From an uncultured Methanosarcinales archaeon (GTDB lineage Archaea; Nanobdellota; Nanobdellia; Woesearchaeales; JAGVZT01), in contig CAYQPU010000003.1 of the NCBI GenBank assembly GCA_964419615.1, forward strand, positions 2,707 to 66,706: a stretch of DNA of 64,000 bases, read 5' to 3'. The notes below the pieces were generated by a model, which did not search any database, had not been told where the DNA came from, and saw only the letters and a program-made list of their open reading frames with translations. This document shows, piece after piece, positions 2,862 to 16,866 of this stretch; positions within the stretch are counted from its first letter, which is position 1, and the number at the start of each line of letters is the position of its first letter. Made by a program: the position numbers and the translations under genes.

Positions 2862-3659
2862 TTAAACAGCTTTCATGTCTTTCCAGTGTGAGTTAAACAT
2901 TTTCTCAAAAGCAGATGCAAAATATTCTGTTTTAACCCAAACTCCAACATCATAGCTTGGATGTACATTCCCATCATCCATTACCATAAATGATATGTCC
3001 TGACCATCAATTACCATGAATCTTGCATCAATGTTACTTTTTCTAACATCAGCATATTTTGATATTTCTTTAACTAAACTTTCATGTTTTTTATTGAAAT
3101 CAGCAGCAATCTTAATTTTAACACCTTTGTCCTTAGCTTTCTTTAATACCTTTCTAAATTCATTGTGTTTTCTAACAATCCCTTCAGCAGATGTAACCAT
3201 AACAATTGATTTTTCAGCACCTTTTATTAAGGATTCAAGATGAGCATATAATCTACTTCTTCCTTTAAATGCTCCAGATAACTCAGTTGGTTCCACAAGA
3301 TCTATTCCTGTTTTGTGTAACAAATTAAGTTCTGTTAACAACTCACTATCTTTAAAATGATTTAAAACATCTGTTTGCTTATCAGCATCTAATTTAATCT
3401 TTTTCTTAACTCTTTCAATAACCTCTTCAGGAGCTACTGCAATATATTTTATAGGTTTATCAATTTTTATAACTATAAATCCTTTTTTTTCCAAACTTTC
3501 CAAAACATCATAACTTCTTGATCTTGGTACATTTGCTATATCACTTAACTCGCCTGCTGTTGAAACACCTCTTGAAAGAAGAGCTGCCCATAATTTTGCT
3601 TCATAACTATTTAAACCAAAGTCCCTTAGTCTATTCAAAAAATCTGATTCCACAATCAT
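2862..3659 (-). CDS. TrmB-family transcriptional regulator (HTH plus C-terminal sensor domain)
   Basis: 265 aa; N-terminal LNSYEAKLWAALLSRGVSTAGELSDIANVPRSRSYDVLESLEKKGF is a classic TrmB wHTH. Confidence 0.7.
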   Translation of the reverse strand: MIVESDFLNRLRDFGLNSYEAKLWAALLSRGVSTAGELSDIANVPRSRSYDVLESLEKKGFIVIKIDKPIKYIAVAPEEVIERVKKKIKLDADKQTDVLNHFKDSELLTELNLLHKTGIDLVEPTELSGAFKGRSRLYAHLESLIKGAEKSIVMVTSAEGIVRKHNEFRKVLKKAKDKGVKIKIAADFNKKHESLVKEISKYADVRKSNIDARFMVIDGQDISFMVMDDGNVHPSYDVGVWVKTEYFASAFEKMFNSHWKDMKAV

Positions 3660-3699: not shown

Positions 3700-4108
3700 T
3701 TTTTAAGAATAACTTAACAAAAGGGTAATATAATTGGTATATAAATCTTTCCTTATTTCATTATCCTCTAGTAATAAAAAAGGAGATACACCTTTATTTC
3801 TAGTGGAAATAATTTAATTGAAAAATTTGCTGTGGTTTTTTTCTTTATTTATATATGGAATTTGAAAATGCTGTTTGTTATTATTATTATTTTTCAATAT
3901 TGAAATATAATATAATAATATATAATATTAATTATATAATTAATAATAATAATAAACAAAAAATAAAGTTTAAATTTATTAAAAAAATAGGTTGATTTTT
4001 TTGTAATTATCTATTTCCAGTTGAAATCAAGGAGTGAGAACACAACTTAAACAAACTATATTTTTAATCATAAAAAGGCTTATATACCTATATTTCATTT
4101 GGAAGATT
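3700..4108. promoter_or_regulatory. Candidate replication origin (oriC) / cdc6 promoter region: ORB-like TTCTAGTGGAAAT and TTCCAGTTGAAAT elements flanking an extremely AT-rich palindromic stretch
   Basis: ORB-like cores at 3799-3813 and 4014-4029; 3880-3960 is near-pure A/T with inverted repeats (tttcaatattgaaa); immediately upstream of orc1/cdc6. Confidence 0.45.
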
Positions 4109-5317
4109 ATGGCTCAGAAAAACCTAGATAGGTTCTTTGAAAATTATCTTAAGAAAGAATCTTTGTTTATGAATAAAAAGGTTTTACAGAGTGCTTACAC
4201 CCCTAATAGTATTCCTCATCGAGATGAACAAATTCAAACTATGGCTGAAATCTTAGCTCCTTGTTTAAAACTTGAGAAACCAAGTAATATATTTATTTAT
4301 GGAAAGACTGGAACTGGTAAAACTGTTAGTGTTAAGTATACAACTAATAAATTAGTTGAAATAGCTAATAAGAAAAATATTGAGTTAAAATTTATTTATC
4401 TTAATTGTAAGCTTAAAAGAGTTGCTGATACAGAGTATAGACTAATTGCTCAACTTGCAAGAGATCTTGGAAAGGCAATTCCTCCAACTGGTCTTCCAAC
4501 AGATGAAGTTTATAAGATATTTTTTGAGGCGCTTGATAAAGAAGAGTGTTTAATTGTAATTGTTTTAGATGAAATAGATCAGTTAGTAAAAAAGGCAGGA
4601 GATGGTATTTTATATAATTTAACAAGAATTAATTCTGAACTTGAGAGATCTCAGATCTCTGTAGTTGGAATATCTAATGATTTAACCTTTACAGATACTT
4701 TGGATCCCAGAATTAAATCTTCATTAAGTGAAGAAGAATTAGTATTTCCTCCTTATAATGCCTTACAAATTCAAGATATTTTAAATCATAGAAAACAAAT
4801 TGCATTTAAACCAGATGTGATTGAATCTGGAGTTATTGAAAAATGTTCAGCATTTGCTGCAAGAGAACATGGGGATGCAAGAAGAGCCTTGGAATTAATG
4901 AGAGTTGCTGCTGAAATTGCTGAGAGAAAAAACCTAAATAAAGTTTCTTTGGAACATATTGATATTGCTGAAGAAAAGATTGAAAGAGATAGGGTACTAG
5001 ATTTAGTAAAAACTCAACCAAAGCAGTTTCAAGCTACATTATACAGTATTTTGATCAGTTGTTCTAAAAAAGATAAGTTAATGCTAACTGGTGAAGTTTA
5101 TGAATTTTACAAATCAATTTGTCTTAAAGTTGGAATGAGACCACTCACTCAAAGAAGAATTTCTGATATTATTGCAGAGTTGGATATGTTAGGAATTATT
5201 AATGCTAAGGTTATTTCTAAAGGGAGATATGGTAGAACTAGAGAAATTACTTTAGCTGTTCCATATTCTACTATCCCTAAAATCCAGAATATTTTACATC
5301 AGGATCTTGATTTGTGA
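4034..5317 (+). CDS. cdc6: Orc1/Cdc6 replication initiator (AAA+ plus C-terminal winged helix)
   Basis: Walker A GKTGTGKT, Walker B VLDEID; the 4034 start is GTG, real start more likely ATG at 4109 (MAQKNLDRFF). Confidence 0.9.
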   Translation: MRTQLKQTIFLIIKRLIYLYFIWKIMAQKNLDRFFENYLKKESLFMNKKVLQSAYTPNSIPHRDEQIQTMAEILAPCLKLEKPSNIFIYGKTGTGKTVSVKYTTNKLVEIANKKNIELKFIYLNCKLKRVADTEYRLIAQLARDLGKAIPPTGLPTDEVYKIFFEALDKEECLIVIVLDEIDQLVKKAGDGILYNLTRINSELERSQISVVGISNDLTFTDTLDPRIKSSLSEEELVFPPYNALQIQDILNHRKQIAFKPDVIESGVIEKCSAFAAREHGDARRALELMRVAAEIAERKNLNKVSLEHIDIAEEKIERDRVLDLVKTQPKQFQATLYSILISCSKKDKLMLTGEVYEFYKSICLKVGMRPLTQRRISDIIAELDMLGIINAKVISKGRYGRTREITLAVPYSTIPKIQNILHQDLDL

Positions 5318-5322
5318 TCTAA

Positions 5323-6927
5323 ATGGTAGAACAGACTAATATAAATAAAAATCTTGTAGACCAATTTTTAGAAAAGGGTTATTTAATTAGTCCAGATTTG
5401 TTTGAATCAAATACTTGTTTTGAAGATTGTGATTTAATCTTTAAAACATTGGAAAATCATCCTAATTTAATGGTATTTACCAAGTATCTAAATGAATTTT
5501 TAGTAAGTAAACAAATAGATAATTTTAATTGGGATGAAATGGAAAAATCAAGAGCCTTGTTTGAAAGAAGGAAAAAAAAAGAAGTTTATGAAAAATTCTT
5601 AGATTATCTTAATAATCAATCAAATGAATCCTTAGGGGATAGTGAAAATTTATATAATAATCTCCCAGAGAATATTTCTATATTAAATGAATATACTGAA
5701 AATACTAGTAAAAGATCTATTCAAGATTTTATTAATTTGTTTAATATAAGATATAATAATATTAGAAAATTTCTTGTTAATAGAAGAGAACTTCAAAGTG
5801 TAAATTCTATTGGAAGACTTAGAAATAAAACAGATAGACAAAGTGTTTCAATAATTGGTATGGTTACGGATAAAAGATTAACTAAAAATAAACATCTGAT
5901 GTTAAGATTAGAGGATCCCACAGGATCTATTAATGTTCTTATAAATAAAAATAGATCTGAATTAATGAATATGGGTAAAGATGTTGTATTAGATGAAATT
6001 ATTGGAGTTACAGGTACTAGTGCTGGAAATATTATTTTTGTAGATAATTTTGTTTATCCTGATTTACCATCTTATACAGAACTTAAAAAAGCTCCTTTAG
6101 AATCTTATTTATTGATTTTATCTGATCTTCATGTAGGTTCAGGAAATTTTATGGAAGAAGAATTTAATAGGTTCTTAGATTGGATAAATGGTAAGGTTGG
6201 TAATGATAAACAAAAATCTTTAGCAAGTAAAATTACTCATATAGTTATTCTTGGTGATTTGGTAGAAGGAGTTGGGATTTATCCTGGTCAAGAAGATGAA
6301 TTAGTTATTTTGGATATTGTTGATCAATATAAAAAATGTGCAGATCTTTTAAGTAAAATTCCAACTCATATTAAATTGATAATTATTCCTGGAAATCATG
6401 ATGTGGCAAGAATGGCTGAACCTCAACCTCCACTTTACAAAGACCTTGCAGCTCCTATTTGGAAACTACCAAATTCAATTATGTTAGGTAATCCTTCATT
6501 CATTAATATTATGTCAACAGATACTTTCCCTGGATTTGATCTTTTATTATATCATGGATATAGTTTTATTTATTATGCTGAAAATGTGGATTCTATTAGA
6601 CAAAATGGTGGAGTGGATAGAGCTGACTTAATCATGAAATTTTTACTGCAAAGAAGACATATTGCACCAACACATTCTTCAAATCTTTATATCCCACATG
6701 CAGACAAAGATCCTCTCTTAATTAGTAAATCTCCTGATTTCTTTTTAACAGGACATCTTCATAAATGTATTGCAGCTAATTACAAAAATACTACTATGAT
6801 ATCTGGAAGTTGTTGGGAATCCAACACTAGTTTTATGGATAAGTTGGGAGTACAAGCTGAACCTGCAAGAGTTCCAATTATTAATTTACAAACCAGAAAA
6901 GTAAAAATAATGAGGTTTGAAAAATGA
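5323..6927 (+). CDS. DNA polymerase II (PolD) small subunit DP1, calcineurin-like phosphoesterase/exonuclease
   Basis: 534 aa; LSDLHVGS, GNHD phosphoesterase motifs; overlaps DP2 start by ATGA. Confidence 0.85.
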   Translation: MVEQTNINKNLVDQFLEKGYLISPDLFESNTCFEDCDLIFKTLENHPNLMVFTKYLNEFLVSKQIDNFNWDEMEKSRALFERRKKKEVYEKFLDYLNNQSNESLGDSENLYNNLPENISILNEYTENTSKRSIQDFINLFNIRYNNIRKFLVNRRELQSVNSIGRLRNKTDRQSVSIIGMVTDKRLTKNKHLMLRLEDPTGSINVLINKNRSELMNMGKDVVLDEIIGVTGTSAGNIIFVDNFVYPDLPSYTELKKAPLESYLLILSDLHVGSGNFMEEEFNRFLDWINGKVGNDKQKSLASKITHIVILGDLVEGVGIYPGQEDELVILDIVDQYKKCADLLSKIPTHIKLIIIPGNHDVARMAEPQPPLYKDLAAPIWKLPNSIMLGNPSFINIMSTDTFPGFDLLLYHGYSFIYYAENVDSIRQNGGVDRADLIMKFLLQRRHIAPTHSSNLYIPHADKDPLLISKSPDFFLTGHLHKCIAANYKNTTMISGSCWESNTSFMDKLGVQAEPARVPIINLQTRKVKIMRFEK

Positions 6928-9900
6928 TTGCAGCAAGTGCTGAGATAAAATCTTACTTTAAGAAAATTGAAGGAGATCTTAATAAATCTTATAAATTTGC
7001 AGAATTAGCAAGAAAAAAAGGATATGATCCCGAAGATAAAGTAGATATTCCTCTTGCAAGAAATATGCAGGAAAGAGTAGAGGGTTTAATTTCAATTGTT
7101 GCACCACAGCTTGTCGATTCTGGAATGATTGATAGGATTCATGAACTTGAAAAAAACTACAGTATCTTGGATTGGAGAGTTGCTTTGATTATAGCTGTGG
7201 AAGTTGCTCAAGAAAAATTTTGTAAATTTAAAACAAAAAAAGAAGCATTAGAAGTTGGGATAAGAACTGGATTTGCATACCACACATTAGGTATAGTTGC
7301 AGCCCCCTTAGAAGGATTTATTGAATTAGAAATTAAAAAAAGACAAGATGGAAAAGAGTACTTATCTCCAAAATATGCAGGTCCAATAAGAGGTGCAGGA
7401 GGAACGGCTGCTGCATTTTCAGTTATTTTAACAGATTATGTAAGAAAACAAATGGGTTATCATCCTTATGACCCTACTGACAAGGAAATTGAGAGGTATG
7501 CAGTTGAGATTAGAGATTATCATGAAAGAGTAACCAATTTACAATATTATCCTTCTGAGGATGAAATTAAGTTTTTGATTAAAAATATCCCTGTTGAGGT
7601 TAATGGTGATCCTACTGAAAAAATTGAAGTTTCTCAACATAAGGATCTCCCCAGAGTTGATACTCCCCGAGTTAGAGGAGGTGTGTGTTTGGTTGTTGCA
7701 GAAGGTTTAACACAAAAAGCACCTAAACTTTGGAAACGACTTGCAAGCTGGGGAGAAGAATTTGGTTTAGAATGGGGATTTTTGTCAGAGTTTATTGATT
7801 TACAAAAAAAGATTAAGGCAGGAGTTAAGGTAAAAAAAGAAGTTGATCAAAAGGTTACACCTAATTATACTTATATTAAGGACTTGGTTGCAGGAAGACC
7901 AGTATTAACACATCCACTAAGAAAAGGAGGATTCAGACTCAGATATGGACATAGTAGAGTAAATGGAATGTCAAGTGCTTCAATTCATCCAGCAACACAA
8001 TTTGTATTAGATAAGTACATTGCATCAGGAACACAATTAAAAGTTGAAAGACCTGGTAAAGCTGCTGCTGTTACAACATGTGATACTATTGAAGGTCCTA
8101 TTGTAAAATTAAAAGATTCAAGTGTTGTTCAAATTAATTCAGTAAAAGAAGCTAAGCAGTATTTGGGAGCTGTTTCTGAAATTATTTATTTGGGGGATAT
8201 TTTGTTTAATTATGGAGATTTTAGTGAAAATAATCATGTGCTGATTCCTCCTGGTTATTGTGAAGAATGGTGGGTTAAGGAACTTGAAAAAGATGTTGTT
8301 AACATGTTTGGTTCACTTGATTATGAAAAATTAAGTGAATTATTAGATGTTCAAACTAATAAAATAAATAATCTGATTAATTCAAATGAATTTGATGTTA
8401 ATGTATGTTTTCAAATTAGTAATCAGACAAAAGTACCTTTACATCCAAAATTTACTTTTTTTTGGAACTCAATTAATCCAGATGAATTAAGTCAATTAGT
8501 ATCTTGGTTTGAAAAAATTAGAATTATTAAAGATGGAGATAAAATTAAAAGATTTGTACTTCCATTAACAGATGAAAAATTAATTATTGAAAAATTAGGG
8601 GTTCCCTATAAAGTTGTTACAAATGAATTTGTGATTTTAAGTGCAGAGTTGGGTATTACTTTTATGAATATTTTAAATCTTGAAAAATTAACTCTTTTGG
8701 AATGTAAAAACATAATTAAGACTAATAAAAATAAAGATACTTTAGAAATAATTAATATGATTTCTCCTGTAATTATTCGGGATAAAGGAGGCACATTTAT
8801 TGGTGCAAGGATGGGAAGACCTGAAAAAGCTAAGATGAGAACTTTAAGAGGATCTCCCCATGTTTTGTTTCCTGTTGGAGATGAAGGAGGTAGGTTAAGG
8901 TCAATTTTGGCAGCTAGAGATGTTGGACAAATAACTGCAGATTTTCCAATTTATTATTGTGATAGTTGTGATAAGGAATCAGTTTTTAGCGTATGTGATA
9001 TTTGTGATAAAAAAATAAATAAAAAGTTTTATTGTAAAGAATGTGGAGTTGTAGATAATGAAGAATGTCAACATGGTCCAACTTATACTTATTCAAAAAG
9101 AAGCATAGATATCAATAACCTTTTATCATCATCTTTAAAAAAAATTAAATTTAGGGCAACACCTGATCTTATTAAGGGAGTAAGGGGAACTTCAAACAAA
9201 GATCATATTCCTGAACATATAATTAAGGGGATATTAAGAGCAAAACATGATATCTTTGTTAACAAAGATGGAACAACAAGATATGATATGTCTGAACTGG
9301 CCATTTCCCATTTTAAACCAAAAGAGATAGGTACAAATGTTGAAACACTCATTAAATTAGGATATAAAAAAGATATAACTGGAAAACCTTTGGAAAATGA
9401 AGATCAATTACTTGAGATTAAGCCTCAAGATATAATTCTTCCTGGAAATAGAAATAATCCTGATGAAGCAGCTGATGTTGTTTTGTTTAGAACTGCAAAT
9501 TTTGTTGATGAATTATTAAGAAAGTTTTATGGTCAAAAATCTTTTTACAAACTAAAGCAACCTACTGATATTGTAGGACATTTAGTCATTGGATTAGCCC
9601 CACACATATCCGCAGGTATGGTGGGAAGAATTATAGGTTTTTCAAAGATTCAAGGCTGTTTTGCGCATCCCCTTTGGCATGCAGCTTTGAGAAGAGATTG
9701 TGATGGAGATGAATGTTGTGTTATATTATTAATGGATGCATTACTTAATTTTTCAAGACAATTTCTTCCAGATAAAAGGGGTGGAAGAACAATGGATGCT
9801 CCTTTGGTATTAAGTTCAAAATTAATACCTTCAGAAGTAGATGATATGGTTCATGGAATAGATGTTGTATGGAGTTATCCTTTGGAGTTTTATGAGGCTT

Positions 9901-10448
9901 GTATGAATTACAAATATCCAAGAGAAGTGGATATTGATCAAATAGGAGATAGATTAGATACTCCTGGTCAATATGAGTCAATGGGATTTACCCATGATAC
10001 AACTAATTTTAATCATGGAGTTTTATGTTCTGCCTATAAAATCCTTCCAACAATGCAGGAAAAACTGTCTGGACAGATGGAAATTGCTAAGAAAGTAAGA
10101 GCTGTTGATCAAAGGCATGTTGCAGATCTAGTTATAAATAAACATTTTATAAAAGATATAAAGGGTAATCTTAGAAAATTTTCAATGCAACAATTCAGAT
10201 GTGTTAAATGTAATACAAAATACAGAAGACCTCCTCTTGCTGGTAAATGTAGATGTGGTGGGAAAATAATATTTACTATTTCTGAAGGTTCTATTGTCAA
10301 ATATCTTGAGCCAAGTATAAGTTTGGCTGAAAAATATGAAGTTTCAGATTACCTTAAACAAACTCTAGATTTGACAAAAAGAAGGATTGAGGCTGTATTT
10401 GGTAAAGATAAAGAAAAACAAGAAGATTTGGGTAAATGGTTTGATTAA
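6924..10448 (+). CDS. DNA polymerase II (PolD) large catalytic subunit DP2
   Basis: 1174 aa; characteristic DP2 size, internal and C-terminal Cys clusters (CDSCDK...CDICDK; CVKCNTKYRRPPLAGKCRCGG); translationally coupled to DP1. Confidence 0.9.
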   Translation: MIAASAEIKSYFKKIEGDLNKSYKFAELARKKGYDPEDKVDIPLARNMQERVEGLISIVAPQLVDSGMIDRIHELEKNYSILDWRVALIIAVEVAQEKFCKFKTKKEALEVGIRTGFAYHTLGIVAAPLEGFIELEIKKRQDGKEYLSPKYAGPIRGAGGTAAAFSVILTDYVRKQMGYHPYDPTDKEIERYAVEIRDYHERVTNLQYYPSEDEIKFLIKNIPVEVNGDPTEKIEVSQHKDLPRVDTPRVRGGVCLVVAEGLTQKAPKLWKRLASWGEEFGLEWGFLSEFIDLQKKIKAGVKVKKEVDQKVTPNYTYIKDLVAGRPVLTHPLRKGGFRLRYGHSRVNGMSSASIHPATQFVLDKYIASGTQLKVERPGKAAAVTTCDTIEGPIVKLKDSSVVQINSVKEAKQYLGAVSEIIYLGDILFNYGDFSENNHVLIPPGYCEEWWVKELEKDVVNMFGSLDYEKLSELLDVQTNKINNLINSNEFDVNVCFQISNQTKVPLHPKFTFFWNSINPDELSQLVSWFEKIRIIKDGDKIKRFVLPLTDEKLIIEKLGVPYKVVTNEFVILSAELGITFMNILNLEKLTLLECKNIIKTNKNKDTLEIINMISPVIIRDKGGTFIGARMGRPEKAKMRTLRGSPHVLFPVGDEGGRLRSILAARDVGQITADFPIYYCDSCDKESVFSVCDICDKKINKKFYCKECGVVDNEECQHGPTYTYSKRSIDINNLLSSSLKKIKFRATPDLIKGVRGTSNKDHIPEHIIKGILRAKHDIFVNKDGTTRYDMSELAISHFKPKEIGTNVETLIKLGYKKDITGKPLENEDQLLEIKPQDIILPGNRNNPDEAADVVLFRTANFVDELLRKFYGQKSFYKLKQPTDIVGHLVIGLAPHISAGMVGRIIGFSKIQGCFAHPLWHAALRRDCDGDECCVILLMDALLNFSRQFLPDKRGGRTMDAPLVLSSKLIPSEVDDMVHGIDVVWSYPLEFYEACMNYKYPREVDIDQIGDRLDTPGQYESMGFTHDTTNFNHGVLCSAYKILPTMQEKLSGQMEIAKKVRAVDQRHVADLVINKHFIKDIKGNLRKFSMQQFRCVKCNTKYRRPPLAGKCRCGGKIIFTISEGSIVKYLEPSISLAEKYEVSDYLKQTLDLTKRRIEAVFGKDKEKQEDLGKWFD

Positions 10449-10466
10449 GCTATGACAAATTGAATT

Positions 10467-10760
10467 TCACATTCTTATCATGTAAGCATAGGGGATGTTT
10501 TGTATTCTCTGTATATTTTCTTTATGTACTACACCACATTCAATACATAAACTTACTGATTTTTTACCTACTGCATTAATTGAGTAAGCAGTTTTTGTTA
10601 ACTCTTTAATTTGTTTTGGATCTTCTTCTTGTCCATTATAAAAATCAGCTGATGTGTCAATTACTTTTTCATCTTGCTCAAATTTCTGTCCAATTAGTTC
10701 TTTATCACAAATTACTAAAATCAGTTTATTATCAGGAGAAATGTGTTTCTTTATTATCAT
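10467..10760 (-). CDS. Hypothetical small conserved protein
   Basis: 97 aa ORF, CIECG motif; no confident family assignment. Confidence 0.3.
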   Translation of the reverse strand: MIIKKHISPDNKLILVICDKELIGQKFEQDEKVIDTSADFYNGQEEDPKQIKELTKTAYSINAVGKKSVSLCIECGVVHKENIQRIQNIPYAYMIRM

Positions 10761-11164
10761 ATTTTGGTTTTAATGGGATGTCTAGCTCCGCATGCTGTAC
10801 ATTTGATAAAATCTATCCTACCTTCAGTAACAATTTTGGTATCTGGTTTATTACATTCCTTACATGTTACAAATTCCTTGACATATTTTGATATTTTCTG
10901 GTTAATCATAGATGCAGATACTTTTCTACCCAGAATTAAGCCTTTAGTTTTAATATCTCCAGGAGTTGCTAATTCTTTCAAAATAAACTTAAGAATATGT
11001 TGTGGTTCTCTTCTTAGTGTAGAAGCGATTAAATTAAAGTTTCTAATAATTGTTTTATTTCCTTGAATATGTCCCCTTACCTTTGGAACTTCAAATCTTT
11101 CCTGACTTTTAGTTGTATCTGGTAGTTCTTGTTTAGCCTTTTTTAGTAAATCTTTGTAATCCAT
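10757..11164 (-). CDS. Translation initiation factor 2 beta subunit (aIF2-beta)
   Basis: 135 aa; C-terminal C4 Zn ribbon CKECNKPDT...CTACGA and conserved central helix typical of e/aIF2-beta. Confidence 0.8.
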   Translation of the reverse strand: MDYKDLLKKAKQELPDTTKSQERFEVPKVRGHIQGNKTIIRNFNLIASTLRREPQHILKFILKELATPGDIKTKGLILGRKVSASMINQKISKYVKEFVTCKECNKPDTKIVTEGRIDFIKCTACGARHPIKTKI

Positions 11165-12118
11165 ATGATCAAGAAATATGGTTTTGTTTTTAAAGATTGT
11201 GGGCTAAGTAGTAAATTATATATATCTCTATTTGGATTTTTAATAGTAATGGTATTAGAGAGTCTGATTGATCCAATAAATGCAAGTAAAAGCAAATTAA
11301 ATCTAATTGCCTTAGGATTTTTATATGCATCTGTTGGCTTGTTTGTTGGTTTGCTTGCTTGGCCAGGTCAGGCAAGTTTAGTATTAGTTTTCTTAACAGT
11401 AATGGCTTCTATGCCTTTTGTATATAATTTACTAAAAATAGAAGAAGAAAAAGATACCAAAATCAAAGAAGAAGTAATATTATTAAAAGAGCATTCAAAG
11501 GCACTTGGTTCATTAATGCTTTTATTCTTAGGTTTTACAATTGGTTTTGCCTTTTGGTATAGTACTCTTCCTTCTGCTGTTGTTCAACCAAGTTTTAGTA
11601 CTCAAGTAAACACAATAGTTAATCTTAATTCAAATGTTGTAGGTTATACTTCTTCTGGATTAAATGATTTTACGAGAGTCTTATTGAACAATGTTAAAGT
11701 TCTTATGTTTTGTATACTCTTTGCTTTCTTATATGGTGTAGGTGCAATTTTTATTCTTGTATGGAATGCATCTGTGATAGGAGTTGCAATTGGAAATTTT
11801 ATTAGAAAAGAGATTAGTCTAATTGCTAGTAAGCTTCACTTAACTGTGGTTTCAAATTATTTTAGAATAGTAAGTGTTGGTTTTTTACAATATATTTTAC
11901 ACGCTATTCCTGAAATATTAGCATATTTTACAGGAGGAATGGCAGGTGCAATAATATCAATAGCAGTTATTAATCATGAATTTGGTACAGAAAAATTTGA
12001 AAAGGTGTTAATTGATTCAATAGATCTTATACTTATTGCAATTGGTTTATTAATAGTTGCAGCTTTTATTGAGGTTTATATAACTCCTCCATTTAGATAT
12101 TTTATTCTAGGACTTTAA
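11165..12118 (+). CDS. Polytopic membrane protein, SpoIIM/DUF95-like
   Basis: 317 aa, ~6-7 predicted TM helices; SpoIIM-like core (VGAIFILVWNASVIGVAIG). Confidence 0.35.
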   Translation: MIKKYGFVFKDCGLSSKLYISLFGFLIVMVLESLIDPINASKSKLNLIALGFLYASVGLFVGLLAWPGQASLVLVFLTVMASMPFVYNLLKIEEEKDTKIKEEVILLKEHSKALGSLMLLFLGFTIGFAFWYSTLPSAVVQPSFSTQVNTIVNLNSNVVGYTSSGLNDFTRVLLNNVKVLMFCILFAFLYGVGAIFILVWNASVIGVAIGNFIRKEISLIASKLHLTVVSNYFRIVSVGFLQYILHAIPEILAYFTGGMAGAIISIAVINHEFGTEKFEKVLIDSIDLILIAIGLLIVAAFIEVYITPPFRYFILGL

Positions 12119-12848
12119 GCCTACCACTTTTTATTTCAAATATCTCTCCTTCTTTTAAAAGATTTTTTATAATATCCTCTCCATCAGTTAAACCATATGA
12201 TTCTACAACTTCATCAAAATCTGCTCCCTCTCCCTTGTCAAGTTTTTTTATTAAATCAAATACTGATTGAGTTTTTTCTACAGGTTGATGATTATTAGGA
12301 GTTTCCTTTTTAGTTATTTTTTGAGAAGTTTTATTTGTATTTTGATTTAATTTCCCTTTTTCTTTATCTTGAAGGTTAACTGATTTTGTTTTTTTAAGTT
12401 CTTTTATTGATAATCTTTTTTTCCAAACGTCCACCCATCTTTTATCTTCTACTTTTTTAACAATTTCAGGAATAATATATTTATCATCATTAAATTCTCT
12501 TGGTTTACCAATAATGTTTACTATGTCTCCCATTTGAATATCCTTTAATTGCTTAATTTCTTCAAAAGCTCTAACTTGGATGTTTCCAGTACCATCATCA
12601 ACTAAAAAGCTTTTATTATCCAGACTAATATCTATTATAACTCCCATTAAATTAACTCTTGATATCTCATTATTATCTTTGGTTAGAATATAATTTGGTT
12701 GCCATCCATCTTGTCTAATATACTTGCCTTGAATAAGAGTGTTTATACTGACTATGCAGGCTACTTGCCTTTTCTGAACAGTACTAGATTTTTTGGATGT
12801 ATCCTCTTCTTGGTTCAAATAAATCACCAGATCGTTTGAGTTTTTCAA
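12102..12848 (-). CDS. RPA32/Stn1-like protein: OB-fold plus C-terminal winged helix, immediately downstream of MCM
   Basis: OB-fold-like core (VNLMGVIIDIS...DGTGNIQVRAFEE...GDIVNIIGKPREF) and C-terminal wH; ORF-track start overlaps MCM stop by 65 nt so true start is probably internal. Confidence 0.4.
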   Translation of the reverse strand: MKNSNDLVIYLNQEEDTSKKSSTVQKRQVACIVSINTLIQGKYIRQDGWQPNYILTKDNNEISRVNLMGVIIDISLDNKSFLVDDGTGNIQVRAFEEIKQLKDIQMGDIVNIIGKPREFNDDKYIIPEIVKKVEDKRWVDVWKKRLSIKELKKTKSVNLQDKEKGKLNQNTNKTSQKITKKETPNNHQPVEKTQSVFDLIKKLDKGEGADFDEVVESYGLTDGEDIIKNLLKEGEIFEIKSGRLKVLE

Positions 12849-14802
12849 TAACCTCTTCTACTTCACTATCTTCAACACCTTTTTCTGCAGCTTGTCTTAA
12901 AATATCTTCAATTGGAATTGTTTTAATTCCTTTGTTTTCAATTTCAGATATGATCTCTCTTATTAATACAATTTTGCTTCTTTGGGTTGCAGCAACCCCA
13001 GTTGCAATTCTATCAATATCTATCTTACCTGTTTCTTTATCAACTCCCACTTGAGTTAAACAGTAATGAAGTAAAGATATAGCTCTTTTAGCATCTGCTT
13101 TGGTTACTTTTCCAGCCAATCTAACTCTTGCACTAGCTTCAGATAATCTAACTAAAGCTTCAAGTTGTCTTGGACTAATAGGGATGGATTTGATTAAATC
13201 TTCTTCAGAAGAGCCTTTATTTCTTAAATCAACATAATATGTCTTAATCTCTTTTATGGCTGCATTTGTCAAAACAGGTTTAACTCCTTGTTTTGCATAT
13301 GCAATATATTTTTTTATTAAATCAGTTTCAATTTCAGGTTCAACTGTTTCTAAATTTTTGTGGATTTCTAAAATAAATGATGCCATCTTGTCATCTTTTT
13401 TTTCATCAGGCATATCTTTTATTGGAAATATTAAGTCAAATCTGTTAATAAGAGTTGGAGGTAATTCAATTTGCTTTGCTAACATCTCATAAGGATCAAA
13501 TCTACCAAATTTAGGGTTAGCTGCTGCTAGTACTGTGGTTTTTGCAAGTAATGTAGCTTGAATATTGGCTTTAGATACAGTCACAGTTTGTTGCTCTAAA
13601 GCTTCATGCATTGCGCTCCTATCTTCAGAACTCATTTTATCTAATTCATCAATACAACAGATTCCTTTGTTTGCTAGAACAAGAGCACCTGCCTCTAGAG
13701 CATACCCTTTCATAAATTCATCTTTAACAACACTTGCTGTTAAACCAACACCAGTTGCACCTTTACCAGAAACATACATACCTTTTGGAGCTATTACTTG
13801 TATTCTTTTTAAAAGCTGAGATTTACCAGCTCCTGGATCTCCAATAAGTAACACATGAATGTCTCCTCTTGTTACAACCCCATCATTTCTCTTTTTTTGA
13901 ACTCCAGCAAAAAGCTGTAAAATTAATGCTTCTTTTACTCTATCATGACCATAAATTGAAGGTGCTATTGACTGAAGGAATTTATCATATATTTTTGGAT
14001 CTTGAGAAAGTTCTTGTATCTTTTTTTCTTCTTTCTTTGAAATTTTGATTTCAGTAAAATCTTCTTCCAAGGCTTTTACATGGTTTGAATCTATTACCAG
14101 ATCATATCTTGTTGAGGTACCACCTGTTCTTAGAACAATTGGAACTTCTCGAATTATTCCTGTAACTAGAATTTTTGATCCAGGATTGGTTTTCTTTTCA
14201 GAGATAGGACTTACAAGATCTTGCTTAAGAAATATGCTTATTCTTTTTGGTTGCTCACTGCCTTCCAGATTTTCAGGTGCTTCTTCTAGTACTATTCTTT
14301 GGGCATCAACTAATTCTTTACTAATAACTCTGAATTTGCCTTTTCTTCCACAACCACATCTTGATGGTTCCTTAAACTTGGTATCTACCTGCAAAATGTT
14401 GATAATATTCCCACAAGAAGGACATTCAAATTGACTAGAAATCACTTGGGGCCGGACATCTGATTTTTGTCTTACTAATCCGTCAACTAAGACAAATATT
14501 CCTAAATGCTTTGCTCTCACGTCCCTAATTCTTACTCTCTGAGATTCAGGGATATTTGAAAATCTGACTTTGAATCTTTCTGTTTCTTTAATATCAAAAT
14601 TTTCTACAGATAACTCAGCTGCTTTAATTACTTCTTCTGGTTGTTCTAAAAGTTCTTCAGCTAAGCTAGGATCAAACTTTAAAAGTTCTTTAAAATCAAC
14701 AATTAAAAAACTCTTGTCAGACTGAACATTTTGGAGAATTTGGGTTTTATAATTAATGTCAAGAAACTCATCAAATCTCTTAATCTGTTCTGCAGCCTCC
14801 AT
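12784..14802 (-). CDS. mcm: MCM replicative helicase
   Basis: 672 aa; Zn finger CPSCGN...CGCG, Walker A GDPGAGKSQ, Walker B CCIDELDKM, arginine finger region. Confidence 0.9.
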   Translation of the reverse strand: MEAAEQIKRFDEFLDINYKTQILQNVQSDKSFLIVDFKELLKFDPSLAEELLEQPEEVIKAAELSVENFDIKETERFKVRFSNIPESQRVRIRDVRAKHLGIFVLVDGLVRQKSDVRPQVISSQFECPSCGNIINILQVDTKFKEPSRCGCGRKGKFRVISKELVDAQRIVLEEAPENLEGSEQPKRISIFLKQDLVSPISEKKTNPGSKILVTGIIREVPIVLRTGGTSTRYDLVIDSNHVKALEEDFTEIKISKKEEKKIQELSQDPKIYDKFLQSIAPSIYGHDRVKEALILQLFAGVQKKRNDGVVTRGDIHVLLIGDPGAGKSQLLKRIQVIAPKGMYVSGKGATGVGLTASVVKDEFMKGYALEAGALVLANKGICCIDELDKMSSEDRSAMHEALEQQTVTVSKANIQATLLAKTTVLAAANPKFGRFDPYEMLAKQIELPPTLINRFDLIFPIKDMPDEKKDDKMASFILEIHKNLETVEPEIETDLIKKYIAYAKQGVKPVLTNAAIKEIKTYYVDLRNKGSSEEDLIKSIPISPRQLEALVRLSEASARVRLAGKVTKADAKRAISLLHYCLTQVGVDKETGKIDIDRIATGVAATQRSKIVLIREIISEIENKGIKTIPIEDILRQAAEKGVEDSEVEEVIEKLKRSGDLFEPRRGYIQKI

Positions 14803-14806
14803 ACTG

Positions 14807-15382
14807 TTACATTACTTTTTTTAGGTTTAAGATTAATTTATCAAGTGCTGCATGTACTTCAGCTTCACTTTTTGTACCAGTACATACAACTTTTCCATTA
14901 GTAAATAACAGGAATGTTGCCTTAGCATCAATTAACTTGAAAACCAATCCTGGAAATTGTTCAGGTTCATATTCTGTATTCTTAAGCTTCATTGCTAAAG
15001 TGTTCAAATTCAGATCCATTCCAACTGAACCAGATGCAACAATGTTTTGAATCTTGATTTCAGGTTCAATGTCAATATTTACATTGATCTTTTTAAGATT
15101 AATAATTATCTTTTTTATTGATTCCTCTACTTTATCCATAGATTTTGCGCCAGTACACACAACTTTTCCGGAACTAAAGATTAATGCAGATGTTTTTGGT
15201 TCTCTGATTCTAATAACTAATCCTGGAAATTGTTCTGGATTATACTCTGTGTTTGGAAGAGTTGCGGCCATCTTTTCAAGAGGAATGTCTTGTTCTAAAG
15301 AGGTGCTAACTACAATATTTACAACTCTAATATCTCGATTTTTACCTTCTTTCCATGTATCTACTTTCTTTTTGTTAGTCAT
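14807..15382 (-). CDS. tbp: TATA-box binding protein
   Basis: 191 aa; two direct TBP repeats (NIVASG..EYNPEQFPGLV twice). Confidence 0.9.
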   Translation of the reverse strand: MTNKKKVDTWKEGKNRDIRVVNIVVSTSLEQDIPLEKMAATLPNTEYNPEQFPGLVIRIREPKTSALIFSSGKVVCTGAKSMDKVEESIKKIIINLKKINVNIDIEPEIKIQNIVASGSVGMDLNLNTLAMKLKNTEYEPEQFPGLVFKLIDAKATFLLFTNGKVVCTGTKSEAEVHAALDKLILNLKKVM

Positions 15383-15684
15383 TTTTTATACCCCCGTAAT
15401 TTGGCAAATGCCAACTTTTCATTTATAAATGAAAATTCATTTATAAATACTTTTATTTTTAAATGATATTTAAACAAAATATATGTTAAAAAAGGGATGC
15501 CCCCCTGGTTTCCAATAGAATTATGGGCTTTAGATACTGTTAAACCCTTGTTTTTTAATATATGATCATTTAATACATAGTTGACCCCTCAATTTCCAGT
15601 GGAGAGTTTAATATATTTTTTACTAAATTTTAATATATATTGTAAACCAAAATTATAAATATAAGTTAACAATAGTTAATTTTC
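15383..15684. promoter_or_regulatory. Divergent tbp/iscS intergenic region containing two ORB-like elements with C-strings and a perfect 13+13 palindrome; candidate origin or shared operator
   Basis: 15500-15521 gcccccctggTTTCCAATAGAA and 15583-15606 gaccccTCAATTTCCAGTGGAG (mini-ORB core plus C/G string, same orientation); 15422-15449 ATTTATAAATGAA-AA-TTCATTTATAAAT inverted repeat; flanks AT-rich. Confidence 0.45.
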
Positions 15685-16866
15685 ATGAAAGTTTATCTTG
15701 ATAATGGAGCTACAACTAAGGTTGCTCCTGAAGTATTAAAGGAGATGATCCCTTATTTTTCAGAAAAGTATGGTAATTCTTCTTCTTTGCATAAGTTTGG
15801 GAAAGAAGCAAAAAAAGCAATTGAGCAAGCCAGAGCTACAATAGCTAAACAGATTAATGCTGATCCCGCTGAAATTATTTTCACATCTGGAGGCACAGAA
15901 TCTGATAATCTTGCTATAAAAGGAATTGCCTATGCTAATAAGAACAAAGGTAATCATATTATAACCACTAAATTTGAGCATCCTGCAATTGAAAAGACTT
16001 GTGAAATTCTTTTAAAACAAGGATTTGAAGTTACTTTTTTAAACGTGTCTAAACAAGGTTTTGTCCGTGTTGAGGATGTTAAAGCTGCAATAACAGACAA
16101 AACCATATTAGTTAGTATTATGCATGCTAACAACGAGATTGGAACAATTCAACCTATTGAAGAAATCGGAAAAATTTGTAAAGATAAAGGAATTTATTTT
16201 CACACAGATGCAGTACAAAGTTTTACAAAAATCCCAATTGATGTTAAAAAAATGAATATAGACTTGGCATCATTTTCTTCTCATAAGATCCACGGTCCAA
16301 AAGGAGTTGGTGCTTTATATTTGAAAAGTGGAACTAAGATAGAACCTCAATCCATAGGAGGATCACATGAATTTGGAAAAAGAGCTGGAACTGAGAATAT
16401 TTCAGGAATTGTTGGATTTGCAAAAGCTTCGATTATTATTTCACAAGAAGATATTAATAATATGAAAAGATTAAGAAATAAATTAATAGATTCTCTTTTG
16501 GAAATACCACATGTTCAGTTAAATGGTTCTAAGGATAATAGGCTTTGTAATAATGCAAATTTAAGATTTAATTTAATTGAGGGTGAAGCCATGCTTATTC
16601 ACTTGGATATGCTAGGAATAGCTGTTTCGACTGGTTCAGCCTGTTCTGCTAAAGATCTTAAACCAAGTCATGTGTTATTAGCAATTGGTTTATCTCATGA
16701 TGTAGCACACGGATCTATTAGATTTACATTAAGTAAATTTACAACTGATGAAGAAATTGATTATACAATTTCAAAAGTAAAAGAAGTTGTAGACAAGCTT
16801 AGGAAGATGAGTCCTTTAAAACCAGGATATAATGCAGATGATTTTCCAAAACATGATCCCCATTAA
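15685..16866 (+). CDS. iscS: Cysteine desulfurase (IscS/NifS class V aminotransferase)
   Basis: 393 aa; PLP-lysine region SFSSHKIHGPKGVGALY, active Cys loop STGSACSA. Confidence 0.85.
   Translation: MKVYLDNGATTKVAPEVLKEMIPYFSEKYGNSSSLHKFGKEAKKAIEQARATIAKQINADPAEIIFTSGGTESDNLAIKGIAYANKNKGNHIITTKFEHPAIEKTCEILLKQGFEVTFLNVSKQGFVRVEDVKAAITDKTILVSIMHANNEIGTIQPIEEIGKICKDKGIYFHTDAVQSFTKIPIDVKKMNIDLASFSSHKIHGPKGVGALYLKSGTKIEPQSIGGSHEFGKRAGTENISGIVGFAKASIIISQEDINNMKRLRNKLIDSLLEIPHVQLNGSKDNRLCNNANLRFNLIEGEAMLIHLDMLGIAVSTGSACSAKDLKPSHVLLAIGLSHDVAHGSIRFTLSKFTTDEEIDYTISKVKEVVDKLRKMSPLKPGYNADDFPKHDPH

Follow-up and report, generated by a model that had tools for sequence, protein, structure and literature searches.

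Origin recognition boxes upstream of tbp in a Woesearchaeota-like genome as putative promoter-linked initiator sites

The 64-kb stretch of archaeal DNA analyzed here (the window) carries, in the 302-bp intergenic spacer between the gene for the TATA-binding protein (tbp) and a class-V aminotransferase/cysteine desulfurase gene (iscS-like), two sequences that resemble origin recognition boxes (ORBs), i.e., sites of the archaeal replication initiator Orc1/Cdc6. Does this spacer harbor a second replication origin or an operator shared by its two flanking genes, as a preliminary description had proposed, or do the boxes serve the expression of the genes beside them? The latter was favored with moderate confidence: the boxes may be ORB-type Orc1/Cdc6 sites that form a control element linked to the promoter of the tbp-mcm operon, and not an origin core. 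This operon is presumed from open reading frame (ORF) packing and Pfam matches (12102–15382, minus strand). It starts with tbp (14807–15382, minus strand; ATG at 15382; Pfam TBP, 7e-62), continues after a gap of 4 nt with mcm (12784–14802, minus strand; Pfam MCM, 1e-94) and ends with an OB-fold gene that overlaps mcm (12102–12848, minus strand). Because of the short gap and the overlap, the three genes look like a single operon.

The distal box (TCTCCACTGGAAATTGAGGGGTCAAC; 15580–15605, minus strand) combines the core TCCACTGGAAA with a G-string and shows no mismatch to TCCA[C/G]TGGAAA. The proximal box (ATTCTATTGGAAACCAGGGGGGCATC; 15496–15521, minus strand) ends in the tail GG(G/A)GG(C/T)AT(A/C), which is typical of tbp-proximal boxes according to a logo of 60 of them. 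Read on the plus strand, the boxes appear as cccccctggTTTCCAATAGAA at 15500–15520 and gaccccTCAATTTCCAGTGGAG at 15583–15604. The two co-oriented ORB-like repeats with a G/C-string between tbp and iscS had been described correctly; their start-to-start distance is 84 bp, i.e., about eight helical turns. The core spans about 13 bp and is partly dyad-symmetric, with zero mismatches for TCCACTGGAAA and two for TTCTATTGGAAAC. The G-strings GGGGGG and GGGG lie about 2–4 nt past the core and give the boxes polarity. The description of the boxes as separated by AT-rich DNA was moderately true, since the 62 bp between their plus-strand readings contain 76% AT.

How specific these boxes are within the window was seen from motif counts and from two scoring matrices. 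The bare 13-mer TTCCAGTGGAAAC was not enriched in the window at up to three mismatches; with 19 matches against 21 expected, this pattern is too permissive to inform. The core together with the G-string (TGGAAANNNNGGGG) matched exactly at three places in the 64 kb, of which two are at the tbp site. The first matrix (26 nt) was trained solely on related genomes, namely on their tbp sites. It assigned 28.1 bits to the distal and 26.5 bits to the proximal box as well as 24.5 bits to a site upstream of cdc6, and no further site in the window exceeded 20 bits. In 100 first-order Markov simulations, the highest score was 22.6 bits, so that none came up to 24 bits. The second matrix was derived from the cdc6-upstream regions of relatives alone, with sites taken by the regular expression TCCA...GAAA. 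At a threshold of at least 17 bits, it found 26.8, 23.3 and 20.1 bits at cdc6 and 26.2 (distal) and 17.5 bits (proximal) at tbp, and nothing elsewhere in the 64 kb. The claim that the tbp boxes are better ORBs than those at cdc6 thus holds for their stronger G-strings, but not for the scores with the cdc6-derived matrix.

The sites at cdc6 show what an origin of this genome may look like. Archaeal origins have been described as a DNA unwinding element (DUE) between ORBs of opposite polarity, with loading of MCM between them (PMC6742236). Upstream of orc1/cdc6 (4109–5317, plus strand; Pfam Cdc6_C, 1e-26; Cdc6_lid, 8e-24), an ORB on the minus strand (3783–3809) and another on the plus strand (4014–4039) flank, on the left and on the right, an AT-rich element at 3840–3989 (92% AT over 150 bp and 97.5% over 80 bp), which is the most AT-rich DNA of the window. 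The cores of these two boxes face the AT-rich element and their G-strings point outward. A mini-ORB (4079–4104, minus strand) lies over the TATA box and the start of cdc6, which suggests autoregulation. Judged by this layout, the inverted boxes and the AT-rich element (3783–4104) are a canonical origin candidate. In relatives, the boxes upstream of cdc6 were found on the gene strand (27) and on the opposite strand (25), and both polarities occurred in 15 of the 47 loci evaluable there; the inverted pair sits 70–160 bp and 300–600 bp upstream of cdc6. The cdc6-proximal origin box of relatives has the same gene-ward polarity as the tbp boxes.

The initiator encoded in the window is of the Orc1-1 type, with a winged-helix domain (Pfam Cdc6_C). 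It is closest to Sulfolobus solfataricus Orc1-1 (2QBY_A; E 9e-114), followed by Aeropyrum pernix ORC1 (2V1U_A; E 2e-98), both of which were crystallised on ORB DNA. The identification of the tbp boxes as ORBs is supported because the same motif flanks the AT-rich element at orc1/cdc6, both in the window and in relatives, and because the encoded initiator is a close homologue of these two proteins.

In total, 160 related loci (L001–L160) were compared, of which 91 were evaluable upstream of tbp. The DP2 protein had served as query for eighty of the metagenomic loci, which brought the two ends of the gene island, cdc6 and tbp, into view at once. With a box defined by a score of 20 bits or more in the 500 nt upstream of tbp, 60 of the 91 loci had one or more. 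The 72 boxes upstream of tbp compare with 78 background matches in 2.38 Mb, which corresponds to an about 48-fold enrichment; many of the background matches were look-alikes in the coding sequences of tbp and DP2. In the logo of the 60 proximal and 12 distal tbp sites, T-C-C-A and G-A-A-A were conserved at 95–100%. The logos of tbp-proximal boxes, tbp-distal boxes and cdc6 boxes of both polarities agreed over about 21 positions (TTCCA-N3-GAAA-Y-N-A-A-G-G-G/A-G), while the tail GG(C/T)ATA was peculiar to the proximal tbp box.

This agreement bears on the possibility that another DNA-binding protein with an ORB-like site occupies the boxes, for example the TrmB-family winged-helix regulator encoded at 2862–3659, or that they are conserved without protein binding, as part of a small RNA or a small ORF. 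Orc1/Cdc6 makes few base-specific contacts (PMC6742236), so that likeness to the motif is no proof of its binding. Nevertheless, a different binder would have to share the logo of the boxes flanking the DUE at cdc6 over about 21 positions. For an RNA or a peptide, the spacer offered no Rfam family, no tRNA and no ORF longer than 32 aa, and the sequence between the boxes is unconserved. A permissive Rfam scan of 15300–15760 gave chance-level matches (E above 0.7), and two ORFs of the spacer starting with M(P/T)P(W/Q)FP are mere translations of the repeated box. RNA pairing within the boxes was rejected as well, since the TCC...GGA dyad is lost when it varies (TCCACCCGA, TCCATGCGA). Taken together, this explanation appears quite improbable.

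A more direct challenge is that the tbp site is a second, or even the true, replication origin, at which Orc1/Cdc6 bound to the boxes would load MCM onto the TATA array at 15413–15492 or onto the stretch at 15606–15684. These two 80-bp stretches flank the boxes and contain 90% AT each, the boxes are genuinely of the ORB type with strong G-strings, and the site adjoins the mcm gene. Moreover, tandem co-oriented boxes occur on one side of the cdc6-adjacent origin in L102, L108 and L116, so that the tbp site resembles half an origin, and in L064 the boxes ahead of the divergent genes mcm and tbp oppose each other. However, all 72 boxes upstream of tbp shared the strand of the gene, their G-strings pointing to it, and none was opposed, whereas origins are described with opposed ORBs around a DUE (PMC6742236). 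In the window, the cdc6-derived matrix found nothing of 10 bits or more on the plus strand around 15600–15800 except the palindromic reading of the proximal box. An opposing half-site (TATTGTAAACCA; 15638–15649) stayed below 8–10 bits with both matrices and was not conserved; it does not complete an origin. The AT-rich stretches are short and look like ordinary promoters, and no extended unwinding element lies between the boxes, whereas the outstanding DUE of the window is the one enclosed by the opposed boxes near cdc6, at a distance of 11 kb. In a genome of about 1 Mb, a pair of origins separated by 11 kb would also be functionally redundant.

Strand composition pointed weakly in the same direction. 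Raw GC skew was useless as an origin test, because in the window it merely tracks gene orientation. In a regression on third codon positions (GC3) with the effect of the gene strand removed, a switch at 15.5 kb gained nothing (b = 0.004; residual 697.4 versus 697.7), and a switch at 3.9 kb was marginally the best fit, at the low power afforded by 61 genes. The second origin that had been proposed between tbp and iscS is unlikely. Apart from any switch, the regression showed the plus strand to be uniformly enriched in G at the third position of codons (b about 0.07). Between about 26 kb and 58 kb of the window, the genes lie almost exclusively on the minus strand; this run would be head-on to a rightward fork from an origin on the cdc6 side.

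If the boxes are not an origin core, what do they accompany? Between the proximal box and tbp lies a box-to-promoter spacer (15466–15495, minus strand) of 30 nt, fixed in length and with the semi-conserved TATA-like pattern tcyTTT..AAAaT.tAT. It is followed by a near-invariant promoter block (CATTTAAAAATAAAAGTATTTATAAAT; 15439–15465, minus strand) comprising an upstream TATA-like box, a purine-rich stretch similar to a B recognition element (BRE) and a TATA box. From the end of the proximal box to the conserved AAGTATTTATAAA, the distance measured 43 nt in 22 loci as well as in the window; in 12 other loci, it was 29 nt. When the sequences of the 22 loci were stacked without gaps, the TATA block carried 1.72 bits per column, the ORB 1.31 and the 30-nt spacer 0.83. 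Past the promoter block, one or two more TTTATAAA boxes, a leader of variable length, GGGGGTG and the ATG follow in relatives. Where two boxes were present (n = 12), they were spaced by 75–88 bp, with a mode of 84 bp, and the sequences between them were unrelated from locus to locus. In the window, this inter-box spacer (15522–15579) is 58 bp long; its length is conserved, its sequence is not.

The boxes were also followed through rearrangements. In five loci (L059, L063, L065, L072 and L132), a box of the same polarity lies between tbp and mcm, 20–22 nt before a TATA-like box and 80–90 nt ahead of the start of mcm. The genes mcm and tbp are divergent in L064 owing to an inversion, with one box before mcm and two before tbp. 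The gene upstream of tbp varied among relatives and was iscS in just a few. Judged by these arrangements, the box follows the genes tbp and mcm and not the neighborhood. Accordingly, iscS was rejected as a co-regulated partner and the idea of an operator shared with it was abandoned. The suggestion that Orc1 regulates these promoters fared better for tbp-mcm, for which fixed orientation, quantised spacing and retention with the genes support it, but not for iscS, which is a variable neighbor.

A promoter-linked site fits these data far better than an origin for three reasons. First, the polarity is constant, the spacing to the core promoter is quantised and the tandem boxes are helically phased. 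Second, the boxes stay with tbp or mcm through rearrangements. Third, an opposed box and a long unwinding element are absent.

Part of this evidence would also suit a non-transcriptional role, in which the tbp boxes handle the initiator as part of an extended origin domain, either as a site of titration or ATP hydrolysis similar to datA or as the anchor of a loop enclosing the 11-kb island. From cdc6, DP1 and DP2 to MCM and TBP, the island is strongly syntenic, with the boxes situated at its far end, and the 84-bp phasing suggests a cooperative contact between Orc1 molecules. In Thermococcales, cdc6 lies between two ORB clusters bound in vivo, the second of which has an unexplained function (PMC1904270). 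A handling site, however, would leave unexplained the rigid phasing of 43 or 29 nt with the TATA block, the move of the box to just before mcm's own TATA box in five lineages and the constant gene-ward polarity, and one or two boxes provide little titration capacity. This role is therefore considered rather unlikely.

For the promoter-linked interpretation, a module can be drawn in the direction of tbp that would comprise a distal ORB (optional), a stretch of about 58 bp free of sequence constraint, the proximal ORB, the fixed spacer, the TATA-like array, leader and ribosome binding site, and tbp, mcm and the OB-fold gene. Orc1/Cdc6 monomers would bind the boxes directionally, and two boxes at 84 bp would place them on the same face of the helix. 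Bound roughly 50–110 bp upstream of the start site, Orc1/Cdc6 may bend or underwind the DNA, and the distorted DNA could modulate the recruitment of TBP and TFB to the core promoter. In this way, the supply of helicase and TBP would be tied to the level or the nucleotide state of the initiator. Sites upstream of BRE and TATA box are more typical of archaeal activators, and the position of the boxes makes activation or architectural tuning more likely than simple occlusion. Similar reasoning could hold for cdc6, where the gene-proximal origin box is also aimed at the promoter. Orc1/Cdc6 has been listed among the single-copy core genes of Nanobdellota (bioRxiv 10.64898/2026.05.13.725050). The wider proposal, that a single Orc1/Cdc6 in Woesearchaeales doubles as transcription factor for the tbp-mcm operon via promoter-phased ORBs and for its own gene via the origin-proximal box, is put forward tentatively, as a possibility falling somewhat short of an even chance. 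In a more radical variant, the boxes would capture newly made MCM in cis or represent a polar half-origin for one-sided MCM loading.

Several points weigh against the promoter-linked interpretation. Boxes are missing in 31 of the 91 evaluable relatives, and so they are dispensable. The proximal core is slightly degenerate, with TTCT replacing the near-invariant TTCC. That the first matrix was trained on tbp sites is a weakness, which is offset by the cdc6-derived matrix. The start site is ambiguous, given a box-to-TATA spacing of 34–48 bp and as many as three or four TATA-like boxes. The fixed spacing could, moreover, serve a non-transcriptional end, such as placing Orc1 near an easily melted TATA array. 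What was observed are motif, conservation, orientation, spacing and a canonical origin candidate elsewhere; from these we infer the rest, including the binding of Orc1 to the tbp boxes and any transcriptional effect with its direction.

The tbp promoter itself (15416–15465, minus strand) contains three to four TATA-like boxes at intervals of about 16–18 nt, and its block yATTTAAAAAyAAAAGTATTTATAAA is better conserved than the ORB. A second copy of the TATA box lies in a perfect 20-bp palindrome (TTTTCATTTATAAATGAAAA; 15416–15435), which forms, with 15436–15448, the 13+13 inverted repeat reported earlier. This perfect repeat over a TATA-like sequence was confirmed at 15421–15433 and 15436–15448; it also represents two direct copies of TTCATTTATAAAT, 18 nt apart. 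The inverted repeat doubles as a direct repeat and as a 20-bp palindrome because the TATA box TTTATAAA is self-complementary. Relatives keep a second or third TTTATAAA box, but not the palindromic symmetry. By this comparison, the perfect symmetry is specific to the genome of the window, the repeat consists of the second and third TATA boxes of a tandem array, and its reading as a conserved operator was ruled out. The array may be an autoregulatory architecture specific to the TBP gene.

Downstream of the array, the predicted tbp leader (15383–15415, minus strand) contains the palindrome TTGGCAAATGCCAA (15401–15414) and a Shine-Dalgarno-like GGGGG (15391–15395) ahead of the ATG at 15382; GGGGGTG precedes the tbp ATG in most relatives. 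Several relatives carry unrelated hairpin-forming sequences where TTGGCAAATGCCAA lies. A structured leader was nonetheless unconvincing, with a mean z-score of −0.77 for the 70 nt upstream of the ATG in 80 loci. On the other side of the spacer, the iscS-like gene (15685–16866, plus strand), divergent from tbp, is preceded by a promoter-like TATA sequence (TTATAAATATAA; 15653–15664 within 15650–15684, plus strand) about 21 nt before its ATG.

Further ORB-related features were noted at the locus and in relatives. A GC-ended palindrome (GGGCTTTAG...TTAAACCC; 15526–15548) lies about 20 nt upstream of the proximal ORB; equivalent palindromes between the ORBs occur in L027 and L041 (GGGCTTAAGCCC and GGGCTATAAGCCC) and are absent from the remaining two-box loci. 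Within the tbp coding sequence, an ORB-like 26-mer (ATTCCTCTTGAAAAGATGGCCGCAAC; 15261–15286, minus strand) scored 19.5 bits in the orientation of the upstream boxes. It recurs in many relatives at about +51 in tbp and encodes the conserved IPLEKMAAT, so that it is probably explained by coding constraint. In one clade, a single strong ORB was found about 4.5 kb upstream of cdc6 (L113 at ~2495, L117 at ~2517, L127 at ~2791, L147 at ~2931, L148 at ~2764 and L153 at ~2007). It is followed by short tandem iterons (e.g., AATCATCAAC and CTTTTCCAGGA, three times each) and an ORF of 90–140 aa similar to winged-helix proteins, an arrangement suggestive of an independent replicon or origin module of the iteron type. 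The window contains no homologue of it.

Compared with known systems, the tbp boxes are like the oriC ORBs of Sulfolobus oriC1, Aeropyrum oriC1 and Pyrococcus oriC in their TTCCA-N3-GAAA core with G-string, in being polar and monomer-sized, in the Orc1-1-type initiator encoded nearby and in the recurrence of the motif at the cdc6-adjacent origin candidate of the same genome. They differ from them in that all are co-oriented, do not surround an unwinding element, show phasing with a promoter and are far from the initiator gene, which origins usually, though not obligatorily, adjoin; in the window, the start of orc1/cdc6 at 4109 is 11.3 kb from the boxes, a distance kept through synteny. The ORBs of Aeropyrum and Sulfolobus have a short spacing between core and G-string that resembles that of the tbp boxes. 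In Pyrococcus ORB1, the G-string lies 9 nt from the core, as compared to about 2–4 nt in the tbp boxes, and the same study named 'TTCC' and 'GAA' as core motifs of ORBs (PMC1904270). On the equivalent strand, Pyrococcus furiosus ORB1 reads GTTCCAGTGGAAATGAAACTCTGGGGGG and matches the motif over TTCCAGTGGAAATGAA, i.e., 16 contiguous bases (PMC1904270).

Boxes outside an origin have precedents. Thermococcales possess a conserved second ORB cluster inside dp1, which is bound by Cdc6/Orc1 in vivo in Pyrococcus and whose role is unexplained (PMC1904270, Matsunaga et al. 2007). As at tbp, these are extra ORBs within an island of replication genes and outside the origin proper. The dp1 cluster, however, is located inside a gene less than 5 kb from oriC and contains mini-ORBs, whereas the tbp cluster is intergenic, lies at the far end of the island and consists of one or two full, promoter-positioned boxes. 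The Sulfolobus paralogue Orc1-2 recognises a different short promoter motif and is not known to use ORBs. It is a regulator of the DNA damage response (PMC9738581), and for Sulfolobus orc1 mutants, non-origin sites from chromatin immunoprecipitation sequencing (ChIP-seq) and altered transcript profiles were reported (PMC3607249). Archaeal Orc1/Cdc6 proteins are thus able to work at promoters and at other sites outside origins. Orc1-2 is, however, a dedicated non-initiator paralogue, whereas the lineage of the window would use its single initiator and the canonical ORB. Likewise, bacteria reuse an origin motif upstream of replication-related genes, in the DnaA boxes of promoters such as those of dnaA and nrd, and at datA. 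As in those cases, the tbp boxes would couple the status of the initiator to gene expression or to its own titration. DnaA belongs to an unrelated protein family and another domain of life; the parallel is an analogy of logic and not homology. A full-text literature search returned no paper joining origin recognition boxes with DPANN or Woesearchaeota, and the only recent Woesearchaeota paper touching origins just rotates genomes to cdc6. ORBs are a known kind of element and known Orc1 sites; that they serve, phased and polar, as a conserved module of the tbp-mcm promoter appears undescribed.

With regard to the genomic setting, the G+C content of the window is 31.7%. The archaeal signal recognition particle (SRP) RNA and the RNase P RNA were its sole Rfam matches at the gathering threshold, and ARAGORN found no tRNA gene in the 64 kb. 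Its nearest relatives are genomes assembled from metagenomes that carry the label Woesearchaeota or Nanoarchaeota, and their TBP is 75–89% identical; the host genome is Woesearchaeota-like (DPANN). Beyond the OB-fold gene, the genes for aIF2-beta, a SpoIIM-like membrane protein, the PolD subunits DP2 and DP1, and orc1/cdc6 follow in the window. This 11-kb 'replication island' (4109–15382; cdc6-DP1-DP2-aIF2beta-SpoIIM-like-OB-fold-MCM-TBP) showed synteny across the about 160 related genomes: the block tbp-mcm-OB-SpoIIM-aIF2beta-DP2-DP1-cdc6 was syntenic in nearly all 160 loci, as was the adjacency of tbp and mcm. The linkage of tbp and mcm goes unmentioned in a survey of archaeal gene context, in which 'TBP' does not occur (PMC2643942).

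Archaeal Orc1/Cdc6 has been studied almost wholly as an origin binder. The evidence for roles outside origins is sparse and comprises the ORB cluster in dp1 of Thermococcales, unpublished ChIP and transcript data from Sulfolobus and the paralogue Orc1-2. Here, a canonical ORB, polar and phased with a promoter, was found across about 60 species-level genomes upstream of the genes for TBP and for the helicase that the initiator loads. The tbp boxes thus provide a concrete, sequence-defined case for initiator-dependent gene control in archaea, which parallels the DnaA regulon of bacteria and the roles of ORC in eukaryotic transcription. They also indicate that ORB matches alone are unfit for calling extra origins in DPANN archaea, for which opposed boxes around an unwinding element are needed, as at cdc6. 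If the promoter-linked interpretation is true, an archaeal 'initiator regulon' would link the licensing of replication with the supply of helicase and with the global capacity for transcription.

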